From a virus (taxonomy: Duplodnaviria; Caudoviricetes), in the IMG/VR virus record IMGVR_UViG_3300044970_000999, positions 1-63,492 of that record: a stretch of 63,492 nucleotides of DNA. One strand, 5' to 3'. Position numbers and translations under genes: made by a program. Shown one piece after another: positions 50,397 to 55,023 of this stretch. The notes under the pieces are model-generated. The model was not told the DNA's origin, ran no database searches, and worked only from the letters and a program-made list of their open reading frames with translations. Position 1 is the stretch's first letter. Each line of letters begins with the position of its first letter.

Positions 50397-50915
50397 TTAT
50401 TTTAAGAAAAGTAATTTGTATTTAGTTGAATTAATTGCATCCTTTACTAGATCTAAGTTATTTACAATCTCAGAATAAGGTAGCATGCCTTGTAATTTAT
50501 TAATCATTGCATACATATCTCTTAGATAAGCAACACCGTCAGAAACATCATCTAATGTTCTTGGAGCAACATCTTTTAGTGTTAAAATTTTCTCAGCAAC
50601 ACCCTGATAACCTTCAACTAAAGTATCAGCATGACCTGGTAAACCATCATAAAAATCTCCGATAGCAACATGAGCAGCATATGAGCCAGGTCCAGTTACT
50701 TTAAGATGCAGTTTGTGAAAACTATTTCTAGCATTCATTAGTTCTACTGCACATGCAGCAACCATTGTATCTAATGAACTACCACCAACACCAGCATCAG
50801 GAGTAGGTTGTGGTTTTGAAGGCTCACTCTTAGGCTGAGTTACTGTTACCTGTGGTCTAGATAGTACTCTAGATGGTTCAGGATTTCTTTTTAAAAGTCT
50901 AGATTTTGTTTCCAT
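50397..50915 (-). CDS. Dps/ferritin-like four-helix protein with Pro-rich N-terminal extension
   Basis: FHKLHLKVTGPGSYAAHVAIGDFYDGLPGHADTLVEGYQG parallels the Dps H..HW.V.G....H......Y.......D...E pattern. The C-terminus INSTKYKLLFLK resembles phage Dps-like proteins. Confidence 0.75.
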   Translation of the reverse strand: METKSRLLKRNPEPSRVLSRPQVTVTQPKSEPSKPQPTPDAGVGGSSLDTMVAACAVELMNARNSFHKLHLKVTGPGSYAAHVAIGDFYDGLPGHADTLVEGYQGVAEKILTLKDVAPRTLDDVSDGVAYLRDMYAMINKLQGMLPYSEIVNNLDLVKDAINSTKYKLLFLK

Positions 50916-50917
50916 TA

Positions 50918-51619
50918 TTAGTTATTTCTTTCTGCAGTTTCTGTACCTCTAGAGAATTGATTTCCAGATTCAATGTCTCCAGCAAGTATGCTTACTGCTT
51001 CATCTATTATTACTTCAATTATATCATCTTTAAATTCACATTCTATGTTTGCTGGAGATTGAACACTAGTATAAGGATCAACACAACCTTGTATCTGGAT
51101 TTTTCTAGGTTGTCTATAATAAGTTAAGTCTACTTCAGATACATTAAAATCATTGTTTGTATAAACATTGATTCTATCATCTATAAGTGTAACAAATGTT
51201 TCTGCCCACTGAAAACTAGGTTGTTTTAGTTTATCTCTTAAAAGAACTGAAACATTACCTTCTTCTGCAAGATATGTTACCATTCTTCTTTTATCACAGC
51301 AATCTTTTTGAGCATAGACATCTACTCTTTTCCACTGAAGATAATTTCCGGGAATGCTTAAAAAAGAATAATCTCCTTTATCTGTTAAATTAGTTATAGT
51401 AGTTTTATTAAGAAGAACTTGTAAGTCATCCTTTCTCCGGGTAGATTGCTCATCACCTTCCTTAGTTATATTAATACCATGTAACTGTCTTCTAGACCAC
51501 TCTACTTGGGCTTTATTAAATGCCTCGACTATCTGCCAACATTCCAAGTTGTCATAGTCCTGGCTATCCAACTTATTGATTCGTTGTTTTATTTTTATAA
51601 CTATTGTTGAATTTAACAT
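50918..51619 (-). CDS. Tail ring / head-tail adaptor protein (crAss-like)
   Basis: NKLDSQDY...FNKAQ...EQSTRRKDDLQVL...YYRQP...CEF...IIDEAVSI. Conserved crAss-like structural gene located after gene 75. Confidence 0.75.
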   Translation of the reverse strand: MLNSTIVIKIKQRINKLDSQDYDNLECWQIVEAFNKAQVEWSRRQLHGINITKEGDEQSTRRKDDLQVLLNKTTITNLTDKGDYSFLSIPGNYLQWKRVDVYAQKDCCDKRRMVTYLAEEGNVSVLLRDKLKQPSFQWAETFVTLIDDRINVYTNNDFNVSEVDLTYYRQPRKIQIQGCVDPYTSVQSPANIECEFKDDIIEVIIDEAVSILAGDIESGNQFSRGTETAERNN

Positions 51620-52026
51620 CTTTCTAAATATTTTATCATATTGGTTAATATTTCAACATTATCTTTTGCATAACCAATAGCAAGATTACACGTTGAACAA
51701 AGTAACCCTCTAACTTTATTTGTAGTATGACAATGGTCTACATATAATCCATTTTTTAATGCACTATGTTCAACTAAACAACAATAACATTTATAATCTT
51801 GGTCTTTTAACATTTTTTCAAAATCATCAATAGTAATGTTATAAGTAGATTTTAATACATTATGTTTTCTTTGTCTTTTATTATTTTCAGCCCAGGTTTT
51901 AGATCTTTCAATTGCTATCTCTCTATTATCATTATAAAAATTTTTTCTATACTCTAAGAGCCTCTCTTTATTTTTAAGATAGTATTTTTTTTGGTATTCT
52001 TTTTTATGTTCAAGATTTCTTCCCAT
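51613..52026 (-). mobile_element. Free-standing homing endonuclease, endonuclease VII (His-Me finger) family
   Basis: YNITIDDFEKMLKDQDYKCYCC...LYVDHCHTTNKVRGLLCSTCNLAIG, with a basic N-terminal arm. Flanked by two copies of the ring-gene start. Confidence 0.9.
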
Positions 52027-52028
52027 TA

Positions 52029-52088
52029 TTATCTATCTAATTTATTTAGCCGTTGTTTAATCTTTACAGTTATAGTACTATTTAACAT
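52029..52088 (-). pseudogene. Orphaned 5' end of the ring-protein gene (19 codons)
   Basis: Encodes MLNSTITVKIKQRLNKLDR*, 15/19 identical to the start of 50918-51619 (MLNSTIVIKIKQRINKLDS). Confidence 0.85.
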
Positions 52089-52090
52089 TA

Positions 52091-52585
52091 CTATCTATTT
52101 TTAGCAATTTTCTTTAAAGTCTTTGCAAGAGCTTTTCTTTTAGGAGTACAAGTAGGTTTAGTCATAGGTGTACAATATCCTTTATGTGCAGGATTAATTG
52201 CTTTTTGAATCCACTTCTTATCAGTTGACCCACCTTTTTTAGCTTTAAATATTGGTTTATCTTCAACAGGTACTGGGGGCGTAGAAGTTTTTGGAACTCC
52301 TCTTAAAACTCCTTTTAAAGTTCTTGTTTCCTTAGCTCTTTCAGGCTCACCATAATTTTTTTTAACTACTGTTTTGTAGTTACCATCTGGAGAATAAAAC
52401 TTCATCTTTGCTTCTTTTGGTGCTTTATCACTTAAAGCTCCTCCATTATCAAATTTAGTTCTTGCAGGTTCTCTTTTACCTATAGGAGTATAACCTTGAT
52501 CTTTAGCAGATCTAATTTTACCTGGATATCCTCTCTGTACTTTTACAGATGCACCAAACTTTGCAGTAGTCTTTTTAGTTGCCAT
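52091..52585 (-). CDS. Small Lys-rich basic protein (164 aa)
   Basis: Lys-rich; FDNGG and AKKGG motifs; C-terminal KWIQKAINPAHKGYCTPMTKPTCTP module. Confidence 0.8.
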   Translation of the reverse strand: MATKKTTAKFGASVKVQRGYPGKIRSAKDQGYTPIGKREPARTKFDNGGALSDKAPKEAKMKFYSPDGNYKTVVKKNYGEPERAKETRTLKGVLRGVPKTSTPPVPVEDKPIFKAKKGGSTDKKWIQKAINPAHKGYCTPMTKPTCTPKRKALAKTLKKIAKNR

Positions 52586-52589
52586 GACT

Positions 52590-52628
52590 TTACTTTTTTA
52601 CTTTACCTTTATTTCTACAGCTACACAT
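52590..52628 (-). CDS. Possible 12-aa basic micro-peptide MCSCRNKGKVKK
   Basis: The ATG...TAA ORF fills the gap between two basic-protein genes, with 2-4 nt spacing on each side. Confidence 0.45.
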   Translation of the reverse strand: MCSCRNKGKVKK

Positions 52629-52630
52629 AA

Positions 52631-52969
52631 TTATTTCTTTTTAGATCCACCTTTTTTCATGTAACCCATTTTATTTCTAACAGCTGTTGGTAATTTAGAC
52701 AATCCAACTTTTCCTGGAGGAACTGGTTTAAGTGATCCACCAGCAGCCATTTTTTTAATAGCACCACCTTTCTTCATAGTAGGGTTAGTTCCCATTTGAT
52801 TTTTAGAAATATCTGTGTTACCATTAGTAGGGCGCATTGGTAAGCCATTTAATGGAATACCATAGTTATAATCTGTAGCTCCACCTTTAGCCATTTTTTT
52901 TACTTTCTTAACAGGACCACCAGCTTTCATTTTGCCGCAACCCATTTTACAAGTTTTCATAGTTTTCAT
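52631..52969 (-). CDS. Small Lys/Met/Gly-rich basic protein with five MxxGG motifs
   Basis: MKAGG, MAKGG, MKKGG, MAAGG and MKKGG in 112 aa. Confidence 0.8.
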   Translation of the reverse strand: MKTMKTCKMGCGKMKAGGPVKKVKKMAKGGATDYNYGIPLNGLPMRPTNGNTDISKNQMGTNPTMKKGGAIKKMAAGGSLKPVPPGKVGLSKLPTAVRNKMGYMKKGGSKKK

Positions 52970-52987
52970 AGTAATATATATAATAAG

Positions 52988-53269
52988 TTAACAATTCCAC
53001 TTTCTTAAAGACTTGTTGATTCTAGAGTTAGGATCATTAGCAGTCTTTGAGCTTGTTAGTTTTTTCTTCATACCAGACATTCTTGCACAAAAAGATTTTC
53101 TTCTTTTTGCAGATTTACTATCTGGATCAAGTTTAGATGGTTTAGTAGTAACAGCTGTTTTAAGTTTACTTCCTGGATTAGCTCTTCTATAGGAAGCAAC
53201 ACCTTTAGCATTAAGACCTCCTTCTGGATTCTTACCTTCTTTTCTTTGCCATGCTGGAGACTTTGCCAT
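52988..53269 (-). CDS. Small basic protein of a widespread phage family (DUF6321-like, from recall)
   Basis: SPAWQRKEGKNPEGGLNAKG...RRKSFCARM...SRINKSLRKWNC. Confidence 0.75.
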   Translation of the reverse strand: MAKSPAWQRKEGKNPEGGLNAKGVASYRRANPGSKLKTAVTTKPSKLDPDSKSAKRRKSFCARMSGMKKKLTSSKTANDPNSRINKSLRKWNC

Positions 53270-53670
53270 TACTTCTTTTTTGTATTTTTAATACTACCAC
53301 CTACCTTAGATTTAATTTTAACTTTTGGTATTTTTAATTGTTTACTTTTAATTTTAGTATTTGTATTTGTTTGATTATTTTCAATATTTCTATTTGACAA
53401 TCCTCTTATTATCTGATCATCAATATATGAATCAACATACTTTGTTTGACCAGATGTCATTGGTTTATTATTTTCTATTTTATTTTCAAGTCTATTTAAT
53501 TTTTTAAAATTAAATTTTGGTGAATACTTTTCAAATTTACCTTTTATAAACTTTTTAATACCATCAATTGGTCCAGGTTCTCCACCATTAGACATTTTCT
53601 TTTTAGGTTTTTTACCAGCTTTTTTCATTGAAATAGCTATTGCTGCTTGTTGTGCTCTACTATTTGCCAT
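53269..53670 (-). CDS. Small Lys-rich basic protein (133 aa)
   Basis: SRAQQAAIAISMKKAGKKPK; MSNGG and SKVGG motifs; TAATG coupling to the next gene. Confidence 0.8.
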   Translation of the reverse strand: MANSRAQQAAIAISMKKAGKKPKKKMSNGGEPGPIDGIKKFIKGKFEKYSPKFNFKKLNRLENKIENNKPMTSGQTKYVDSYIDDQIIRGLSNRNIENNQTNTNTKIKSKQLKIPKVKIKSKVGGSIKNTKKK

Positions 53671-53674
53671 TACT

Positions 53675-54037
53675 TTACTTTTTTACACAGTTATTATATG
53701 TTTTACCATACATTGTTTTAGTACCTTTTTTTTCATAACCAGGCCAACAGCTTTTAGCAGTACCGCCCATTTTCTTTTTTGCTAATCCCTTACCCTTATA
53801 TTCGTAATTAGGATTATCCTTATGCCATTTCTTTGTAGCAGCTACTCCTTGTGCTACAGTTTTTGCTCTTCCTTTTGCAGTCAAATCTATTGTATCCCAC
53901 TGTCCTTTATCTTTAGTAGGATGGTTAACCATTATATGACCAACTTTTCCTTCTCCTTTTTTTGTAGTCTTCTTATATACTACATGTTTTTCACCACCGG
54001 CAGTAACCTTTACTTTCTTAGTTTTTGCCTGTGCCAT
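53675..54037 (-). CDS. Small Lys-rich basic protein (120 aa)
   Basis: KKMGG followed by a CWPGYEKKGTKTMYGKTYNNCVKK module. Confidence 0.8.
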   Translation of the reverse strand: MAQAKTKKVKVTAGGEKHVVYKKTTKKGEGKVGHIMVNHPTKDKGQWDTIDLTAKGRAKTVAQGVAATKKWHKDNPNYEYKGKGLAKKKMGGTAKSCWPGYEKKGTKTMYGKTYNNCVKK

Positions 54038-54039
54038 GA

Positions 54040-54285
54040 TTAAATCTTTTTGCCAGCAGCAATACTATTAAATTCTTTTGCTTTCTCAGCTGCCATCTTT
54101 TTTACATCTGCCATTAACTTAGCATTCTTCTGTATCTCAGATGCTCTTTGTAATGTAGACATAGCAGATTCAATTTCCCATTTTCTCATCTCTGCTTTGT
54201 TACCACCAAAAATGGAAATACCAACTGAAGAATTTGCTTTCTTAGCTGGTGTGGATTTTTTAGTTGTTGTTTTTTTAATTGCCAT
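54040..54285 (-). CDS. Small basic helical protein (81 aa)
   Basis: KWEIESAMSTLQRASEI core with a Lys-rich N-terminal arm. Tightly packed with its neighbours. Confidence 0.75.
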   Translation of the reverse strand: MAIKKTTTKKSTPAKKANSSVGISIFGGNKAEMRKWEIESAMSTLQRASEIQKNAKLMADVKKMAAEKAKEFNSIAAGKKI

Positions 54286-54287
54286 AA

Positions 54288-54554
54288 CTATCTATATCTT
54301 GCCGCCTTTTGGGCTATACCCTTGGGCTGTTTAACAAATTGTTTTCCTTTACTATTACCTTTAGCCTTTGCTTTATTTGTTGCAGCTTTTTCTCCTGCTG
54401 ATAAAGAACCCCAAGCAGCTTCCGGTAAATATCTTTTTTTACCTTTTGACTTTACCTCTTTAGAAGAACCTTTCTTCTTATTTGCATAAGTTCCAGATGT
54501 CATCCATTTTTGTGCTGACCAATCTCTTAAACTTTGCTGAGGATCTTTAGCCAT
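54288..54554 (-). CDS. Small basic protein; C-terminal half of a DUF5872-like family (from recall)
   Basis: QQSLRDWSAQKW...RYLPEAAWGSLS...GKQFVKQP. Confidence 0.75.
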   Translation of the reverse strand: MAKDPQQSLRDWSAQKWMTSGTYANKKKGSSKEVKSKGKKRYLPEAAWGSLSAGEKAATNKAKAKGNSKGKQFVKQPKGIAQKAARYR

Positions 54555-54754
54555 TACTTCTTAGTTTTATAACCACCACCTTTAGACTTATATTCTTTAG
54601 CTAAAAGTTGTGCTTTTCTTGCAGACCATTCTCCAGGATCTCCTCCCTTTGTACCAGCTTTAATTCTTTCAAACAAAGACTTACGCATACCAGGCTTAGT
54701 GTAAACACCAGCCTGGTTAACGCGACTTTTAGTAGTAGATTTCTTTAGTGGCAT
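54554..54754 (-). CDS. Small basic protein; N-terminal half of a DUF5872-like family (from recall)
   Basis: YTKPGMRKSLFERIKAGTKGGDPGEWSARKAQLLAKEYKSKGGGY. Confidence 0.75.
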   Translation of the reverse strand: MPLKKSTTKSRVNQAGVYTKPGMRKSLFERIKAGTKGGDPGEWSARKAQLLAKEYKSKGGGYKTKK

Positions 54755-55023
54755 TATTTCATTTTTTTAGCACCACCTTTTTTCATCATACCTGGTCTCA
54801 TAGAAGTACCATACATAGCTTTAGGAACTGCAGTTTTAGGAGCTTTAGAAGTTCCACCTGAACGTCCTTTAGCTACTTTAGATGCAGAAACTTTAGCATT
54901 CTCTCCAGAGATAACACCTTTAGATCCAGGAGTTTTATCTGCAGAAACTTTAGTATTAGCATTTACCATACCACCAGCTTTCATCATTGATTTGCCATAC
55001 ATGGCTTTTGCTATTTTTTTCAT
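54754..55023 (-). CDS. Small Lys-rich basic protein (89 aa)
   Basis: KAMYG twice, MKAGG, MKKGG, and an internal repeat NTKVSA/NAKVSA. Confidence 0.8.
   Translation of the reverse strand: MKKIAKAMYGKSMMKAGGMVNANTKVSADKTPGSKGVISGENAKVSASKVAKGRSGGTSKAPKTAVPKAMYGTSMRPGMMKKGGAKKMK

Follow-up and report, generated by a model that had tools for sequence, protein, structure and literature searches.

Homing endonucleases are usually thought to persist within essential genes in one of three ways: inside self-splicing introns, as inteins, or by breaking the gene into fragments that come together again. Here we describe a locus in a freshwater crass-like phage that would represent a further solution, in which the element brings its own replacement for the piece of the gene that it displaces, namely the start codon and N-terminal helix of a tail-barrel ring protein. 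The locus lies in a 63,492-nucleotide stretch of Caudoviricetes DNA (IMG/VR record IMGVR_UViG_3300044970_000999; hereafter the window). Here, the 5′ end of the ring gene is interrupted by an Endo VII-type endonuclease gene, and comparison with related phages makes it highly likely that this gene belongs to a free-standing homing endonuclease cassette, nested in that 5′ end and carrying its own copy of the ring gene's first 56 bases. All features of the locus are on the minus strand, and their coordinates are window positions.

The closest precedent that we found comes from fungal organelles. In atp6 of Allomyces macrogynus, cited as the first example, and in atp6, atp9, cox2 and nad3 of Glomus sp., mobile endonuclease open reading frames (ORFs) are described as having inserted together with a foreign C-terminal segment, with the native C-terminus lying downstream (PMC3630166). 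As in the phage locus, an endonuclease gene is accompanied by a diverged copy of a gene terminus that becomes the working end, while the native segment is displaced but remains adjacent. Further, the native fungal segments are reported to match close relatives, and the inserted ones to have diverged mostly synonymously (PMC3630166). Here, the displaced native start, which persists as a short stub, matches endonuclease-free relatives at 56 of 57 bases, and the element-borne copy matches them at 43 of 57. The two systems differ in the end that is replaced. In the fungal genes it is the 3′ end, whereas here it is the 5′ end together with its start codon, leaving the native start upstream and still positioned for translation. 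They also differ in their enzymes and hosts, with LAGLIDADG or GIY-YIG endonucleases in organelles on the one hand (PMC3630166), and an Endo VII motif in a phage of an uncultured lake bacterium on the other. By this comparison, the cassette is best regarded as an analogue of the fungal mobile ORFs, their 5′ mirror image, rather than as a member of the group.

Among phages, the free-standing Seg and Mob endonucleases of the T4 type lack an intron or intein, reside in or beside critical genes, and co-convert flanking markers (PMC2988022). The present locus appears to share this intronless homing, the location in or next to a functionally critical gene, and the co-conversion. However, mobE in Aeh1 nrdA and mobA in T4 gene 39/60 are described as splitting their genes into two polypeptides that reassemble (PMC2988022), whereas a single full-length ORF is retained here. 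The available text of that review describes no duplicated gene ends, and the stem 'duplicat' is absent from it. Group I introns and inteins also occupy conserved coding sequence, draw both homology arms from one gene, and leave the host product intact. In contrast to these elements, the cassette would depend on neither a ribozyme nor protein splicing, with the gene made whole in the DNA itself by a spare copy of the interrupted segment. We found no case of a phage endonuclease cassette with a replacement gene start in the literature consulted, which consisted chiefly of open-access papers without their supplements and included the accessible parts of PMC2988022, PMC10448857, PMC8351571 and PMC2248197.

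The locus is compact. Upstream lies gene X (52585..52091), a Lys-rich protein of 164 amino acids taken from the ORF list, which is without a family and found no match in Pfam and PHROG searches. Two bases after its end begins the stub ORF (52088..52029), which has 19 codons (MLNSTITVKIKQRLNKLDR) and a stop at 52031..52029. Its native part (52088..52033) comprises the ring gene's own first 56 bases, that is, codons 1-18 and part of codon 19, after which element-derived letters encode Arg and the TAA stop. Two bases beyond this stop is the ATG of the endonuclease gene (52026..51613), which encodes a protein of 137 amino acids with a DHHRN-type Endo VII motif recognised by both Pfam and PHROG. 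The endonuclease stop overlaps the ATG of the ring gene at 51619 (ATGTTAA). The ring gene itself (51619..50918) encodes 233 amino acids, starts with MLNSTIVIKIKQRINKLDS, and is made of an element-borne 5′ end (51619..51564, again codons 1-18 and part of codon 19) joined to a native remainder.

The putative mobile cassette (52032..51564) is thus located between bases 56 and 57 of the ring gene. Its boundaries were drawn from comparisons with two related loci (L001 and L161; loci are given as L numbers and sequencing runs as X numbers) and from a contig of run X15, an RNA library, that joins position 51563 to 52033. Because this contig skips exactly 469 bases, the insert is taken to be 51564..52032; five bases (GATAG) at the joint fit either side. 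The 469 bases consist of a 6-base linker, the 414-base endonuclease ORF, and 49 bases encoding the ring gene start, bearing out the original observation that the insert is almost wholly coding.

Also borne out is the resemblance originally described between the two gene starts, including the many synonymous codon changes between them. The stub and the working ring start share 15 of 19 residues and 42 of 57 bases, with a longest common run of 9 bases. Residues Val7-Ile8 and Ile14 mark the element-borne start. Most of the 15 base differences are synonymous, and one Ser codon has switched codon family (AGT to TCA). Such similarity is far from what chance provides in this DNA. Among 126,872 windows of 19 residues in the six frames of the window, the runner-up after the stub matches the working start at 7 of 19 residues, and at the DNA level the runner-up 57-mer matches at 33 of 57 bases. 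When all window ORFs of at least 80 amino acids were scanned for an N-terminal copy upstream or a C-terminal copy downstream, the only match besides this locus was a low-complexity Lys-rich one, and a second copy of the endonuclease gene was looked for in the window and not found. The duplicated codons encode the N-terminal helix of the ring protein model (residues 3-16).

Relatives without the endonuclease indicate which of the two starts is the original. Using the ring protein as a query, 80 of 132 relatives in IMG/VR and 80 of 278 metagenome relatives were taken as loci. The closest endonuclease-free loci have a single uninterrupted ring gene, with its ATG 2 bases past the end of gene X or of another small gene. 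For example, L001-L003 carry a gene X that is 99% identical to that of the window and ends 2 bases before the ring ATG. The ring starts of endonuclease-free loci match the stub at 56 of 57 bases in L006, L007 and L009-L011, as had been predicted for such relatives, and at 54 of 57 in L001-L003, yet they match the window's working start at only 41-43 of 57. Because the endonuclease-free starts resemble the stub far more closely than the working start, the stub is taken as the resident gene's original start. Indeed, the left flank of the window is 96.1% identical to L001 over 1227 bases, and this alignment stops exactly at the last native base of the stub; identity in the right flank is 84.1%. 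On this comparative evidence, the first 18-19 resident codons have been displaced upstream as the stub, and the ring gene has been rebuilt in frame from an element-borne start and the resident remainder.

The duplication and the endonuclease occur together. No locus with two copies of the N-terminal motif was found among about 150 endonuclease-free loci, a combination that would have told against the original prediction. Two motif hits were present in 6 of the 161 sequences examined (five loci and the window), all of which have the endonuclease, and among the metagenome loci in two, again both with the endonuclease. Conversely, L161 and L162, whose ring proteins are 97-98% identical to that of the window, lack the cassette. 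Among the ring-gene relatives of this clade, the endonuclease gene was found at this one site only.

Further carriers were found with the endonuclease as a query and in the metagenome set. Eight other contigs (L018, which is the same as L082, and L081, L083, L084, L085, L179, L189 and L217) encode an endonuclease that is 79-93% identical in amino acid sequence. All eight have a stub, and the endonuclease stop overlaps the ring ATG in every carrier whose downstream sequence is visible. In seven of the eight, the junction falls after codon 18 and is followed by 6-14 variable bases, even though the ring genes of these backgrounds are only 75-89% identical. The eighth, L179, has a stub with 12 native codons, and its junction looks like a deletion derivative of the L085 type. 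The endonuclease gene of L179 (2094-2507) also looks mosaic, its first half being like that of the window and its second half of the L085/L189 type, which suggests recombination between cassettes.

The stubs vary from contig to contig, while the element-borne copies resemble each other. At the Ser4 codon, for instance, TCN is used by 7 of 7 distinct element copies, whereas 6 of 6 distinct stubs use AGY. A T at base 10 was present in 2 of 94 distinct endonuclease-free alleles, and a search of IMG/VR for the copy-type start pattern returned four contigs, all of them cassette-bearing. Across the seven distinct copies, the ATG and protein sequence of the element-borne start have been kept, and change has been mostly synonymous. 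The stub in the window and in L179 is probably the recipient's own. Overall, the cassette is present or absent among near-identical phages, occupies the same junction in different backgrounds, and is accompanied by a donor-type patch on the ring side.

This patch is apparent when the ring gene of the window is compared with its closest endonuclease-free counterparts. Of the 36 differences from L161 in 702 bases, 33 fall in bases 10-175 and 3 in bases 176-702. Seventeen of these mismatches are in bases 57-175, beyond the duplicated part, where donor-type letters define a putative co-conversion tract (51563..51445). Against L162, 22 of 27 differences fall in bases 10-120, and the patch ends near base 120; the donor-type letters thus extend 64-119 bases past the duplicated part. 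Other carriers show a similar distribution. L179 differs from L181 at 15 positions in bases 1-54, 5 in bases 55-120, and 19 in bases 121-690, and the corresponding counts for L189 against L190 are 17, 4, and 2. A short mismatch patch of this kind has the appearance of co-conversion during double-strand-break repair.

Mixed populations provide a further view of the same patch. The sequencing runs that contain the stretch are lake and river metagenomes, and in runs X6 and X12 native-type variants occur exactly at the patch positions. Run X6 also yielded a 668-base contig with no differences from the window across the stub, endonuclease and copy, at a depth of 27.6 against a flanking depth of about 50-214. 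Contig depth is a rough guide, but such values would be expected of a population containing both forms. In run X8, a lake metagenome, a single 2202-base contig spans the stub and the endonuclease. The same contig has 467 extra letters between the gene X stop and the stub ATG (window 52089/52092), which is another insertion at the same gene boundary.

The endonuclease can be placed by its sequence features. Pfam Endonuclease_7 (PF02945) matches residues 58-135 of 137 (E 1.8e-21), placing the domain at the C-terminus, and PHROG matches are to 'endonuclease VII' families. In an alignment with T4 Endo VII, residues C80, C83, D97, H98, H100, R106, C110, C113 and N114 correspond to C23, C26, D40, H41, H43, R54, C58, C61 and N62, indicating that the catalytic and zinc residues are intact. 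These residues make up the described DHHRN features, a CX2-4C zinc site, D-H-x-H, R, CX2C and N, and in DHHRN homing endonucleases of the F-CphI type, unlike resolvases, the motif is located at the C-terminus (PMC6083498). The best sequence match in the PDB was the restriction enzyme Hpy99I, ahead of T4 Endo VII, and Hpy99I has been placed in the 'endonuclease clade' (PMC6083498). In its domain residues and C-terminal motif, the phage endonuclease has the features of the DHHRN family as found in that clade. It shares with F-CphI and its relatives an identical catalytic motif (CX2C, D-H-x-H, R, a second CX2C and N) at the C-terminus. In contrast, F-CphI is a free-standing enzyme encoded next to psbA whose target is an intron insertion site, and other DHHRN members are intron-encoded (PMC6083498). 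No member described in the available text of that paper has part of its host gene aboard.

The host gene probably encodes a structural component of the virion. The 233-amino-acid protein has no Pfam family and matches PHROG 29507, 'virion structural protein'. A tblastn search gave a weak match to a 'ring protein' of crAss-like phage csAssE-Sib (E 6e-8, coverage only 44%), and single-sequence and profile searches of PDB sequences gave nothing significant. An AlphaFold model built from 14 relatives (pLDDT 71.2, pTM 0.68) was more informative. When compared by Foldseek with the tail-barrel chains of crAss001, it matched 7qoj_D with E 2.9e-13 (TM 0.71/0.73), 7qoj_E with 2.4e-10, and 7qoj_F with 3.1e-9. 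In crAss001, these chains make up the tail barrel as paralogous dodecameric rings, and their fold combines conserved helices with a beta-sandwich domain (PMC10172136). The model thus assigns the 233-amino-acid protein the fold of a crAss001 tail-barrel ring protein, and it is on this match to crassvirus tail ring proteins that the label 'essential' for the host gene would rest. The related contigs are 107-128 kb in size. The gene that follows the ring gene (50397-50915, minus strand) encodes a DUF5856 protein (E 6.7e-12), is kept in related contigs, and carries the PHROG label 'starvation-inducible transcriptional regulator'.

The same arrangement was found with a second lineage of endonuclease. 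L047, L048/L049 and L243 carry an Endo VII-type endonuclease of 168 amino acids that is 37-39% identical to that of the window. Here, the endonuclease ORF itself opens with the ring gene's first codons (MLNSAILI or MLNSTILI) fused in frame, placing the junction within the first eight codons, and its stop overlaps a second, synonymously diverged ring start. L263, which shares the upstream flank and whose ring protein is 99% identical, has a single start and no endonuclease. Between a second-lineage locus (L261) and L263, 13 of 17 ring mismatches fall in bases 1-273.

Beyond the ring gene, the arrangement was looked for and not found. Among 100 scanned loci with other Endo VII-type genes, 64 were usable, having a complete endonuclease gene and a co-oriented downstream gene, and none of these showed a 5′ duplication of the downstream gene; only ring-gene loci show it. 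Ahead of nrdB-like genes, scores reached a borderline 28-31, which on inspection proved to be chance. Further Endo VII-type genes lie between small array genes in L005 (1925-2344; 139 amino acids) and L044-L046 (3169-3741; 190 amino acids). They are 31-35% identical, and neither has a duplicated neighbour start.

In the mechanism that we propose, the uninterrupted allele is cleaved by the endonuclease within the first ~60 bases of the ring gene or close to them, and a cassette-bearing genome in the co-infected cell serves as the template for repair. The left homology arm would then be provided by the stub, and the right arm by the body of the ring gene. Because the stub is homologous to every recipient's ring start, it could serve as a left arm despite the hypervariable genes upstream. 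Divergence between the stub and the copy, with its short longest common run, would keep recombination between the direct repeats from deleting the cassette, and may in addition shield the element from self-cleavage.

The stub may also support expression. Ribosomes that initiate at the native ring start would terminate at the end of the stub, 2 bases short of the endonuclease ATG; the stop of the endonuclease gene in turn overlaps the new ring ATG. In all eight loci with visible junctions, the stub ORF is open and its stop lies anywhere from an overlap with the endonuclease ATG to 8 bases before it. In L179, two deletions jointly preserve this arrangement of stub stop and endonuclease ATG. A scan for terminator-like sites between the genes found none, and promoter-like sites were at chance level (15 against 12.9 ± 3.8 expected) in a scan that does not cover Bacteroidota-type promoters. 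These observations fit a termination-reinitiation relay from the native ring start.

Several observations weigh against this picture of homing. Beside the junction, the native allele and the rebuilt copy hardly differ: in the window, 2 of 15 bases are changed, and L083 is identical to the native sequence over the 12 bases to the left of the junction. The sole fixed difference between native and copy, the Ser4 codon, is 45 bases from the junction. Because the junction-side bases are almost unchanged, insertion and recoding may leave a junction-centred target site intact. Nor need the copy's divergence be adaptive, as the unduplicated converted stretch has also diverged (17 of 119 bases), as if the donor came from another lineage. 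The L189 stub and the ring start of its closest endonuclease-free relative disagree at 9 of 54 bases; consequently, the stub is not always the recipient's own, and the left crossover could also lie further upstream. The endonuclease ORF of L084 (3001-3411) is broken, with 79 codons, and the ring start of L084 is one base out of step with that of the near-identical L081, either because this copy is decaying or through sequencing error. Loose ends at 51573 and 51619 in run X6 lead to a short contig that seems to carry a copy-like start (47 bases, at least 90% likeness) immediately following another upstream gene, with no endonuclease; this could represent either a natural lineage with that start or the outcome of cassette loss. 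Finally, some loci are the same record in both collections (e.g., L008 and L175, L012 and L182), and the counts of loci given above overstate the number of independent samples.

Three other explanations could account for the locus. The most serious, although unlikely, is that a single illegitimate recombination between diverged phages duplicated the gene start, with the endonuclease a passenger subsequently spread by ordinary mosaic recombination. The region upstream of the ring gene is indeed highly mosaic (L001, L006, L009, L012 and L018), identity shifts sharply across the endonuclease gene, and nuclease genes have been described at recombination boundaries in other phages (PMC10448857). 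Homing, moreover, is supported by comparative sequence throughout rather than by cleavage. A scar of this kind is nevertheless difficult to reconcile with the recurrence of one junction in seven of eight other contigs with such divergent ring genes. The donor patch is also short (120-175 bases) and set within near-identical genomes, with only 3 mismatches in the other 527 bases relative to L161. All catalytic residues have been kept, and a second endonuclease lineage has the same design at a different junction. A nested homing cassette explains these features better.

Removal of the insert from the RNA, as an intron, or during translation, by ribosomal bypass as in T4 gene 60, would instead yield a protein from the stub and the downstream part. 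We consider this very improbable. The joint in the RNA-library contig of run X15 is exactly the one that such removal predicts, yet over the 160 bases beside the joint this contig departs from the window at 19 letters. Because L161 shows about as many mismatches there (17), the contig is taken to be an endonuclease-free relative and not a spliced product, and endonuclease-free DNA alleles with the same joint exist. It is the sole joined contig of its kind, so the spliced transcript that would have contradicted the original prediction did not appear; contigs from RNA runs cannot show transcription, and no conclusion on expression was drawn from them. An Rfam scan of 50800..52700 at E values up to 10 gave six weak matches, none of them an intron and all far below gathering scores, and the 469-base insert folds no better than its shuffles (z -0.77). 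All but 55 of the 469 bases belong to the endonuclease ORF; a group I intron was rejected on this count, together with the Rfam result and the identity of the joined contig. Neither does removal explain why the element-borne ATG and protein sequence have been kept in all seven distinct copies. An intein is excluded because stop codons separate the stub, endonuclease and ring ORFs. A false duplication, stitched together during assembly from two strain alleles, is scarcely credible. The source metagenome does hold several co-occurring alleles, but the same order was assembled independently in eight other contigs from different samples, and single Logan contigs span the locus in runs X6 (668 bases, without differences) and X8 (2202 bases). 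Taken together, the relatives, the stop codons and the Rfam results support the original view of a homing-type gene inside a coding region, without intron or intein, in which the gene remains intact thanks to a diverged duplicate of its 5′ end.

We speculate that, beside introns and inteins, carrying a spare copy of the interrupted gene segment is a distinct strategy, favoured by selection, by which free-standing homing endonucleases can reside in an essential phage gene. Under this tentative proposal, which we hold with somewhat less than even confidence, the stub would act as both a portable left homology arm and a translational launch pad, and the design would have arisen at least twice here, once after codon 18 and once within the first eight codons. 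The cassette is natural and apparently still mobile, because it is present or absent among near-identical lake phages, is flanked by a 120-175-base patch, and includes one degenerate copy. Target choice, self-immunity and the coupling of expression are all directly testable on this locus. Such cassettes also matter for annotation, since they generate short orphan ORFs and chimeric gene starts that pangenome and phylogeny pipelines would misread, and they carry short stretches of structural genes between phage lineages.

The genes upstream of the ring gene form a variable array of their own. In the window, 52091-55023 (minus strand) holds about ten small Lys/Gly-rich ORFs without a family, and the content of this array varies among close relatives (L001, L006, L009, L012 and L018), with genes fused, swapped or missing. 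The tail barrel of crAss001 stores cargo proteins, and by analogy the small array ORFs could encode virion cargo. When the 2.9-kb array was used as a query, 171 phage records matched somewhere, and most of the listed matches fall on a single ORF of 93 amino acids (52988-53269, minus strand; MAKSPAWQRKEGK...). This ORF shows 66-77% DNA likeness to unannotated small genes of Pelagibacter, Prochlorococcus and Synechococcus phages.

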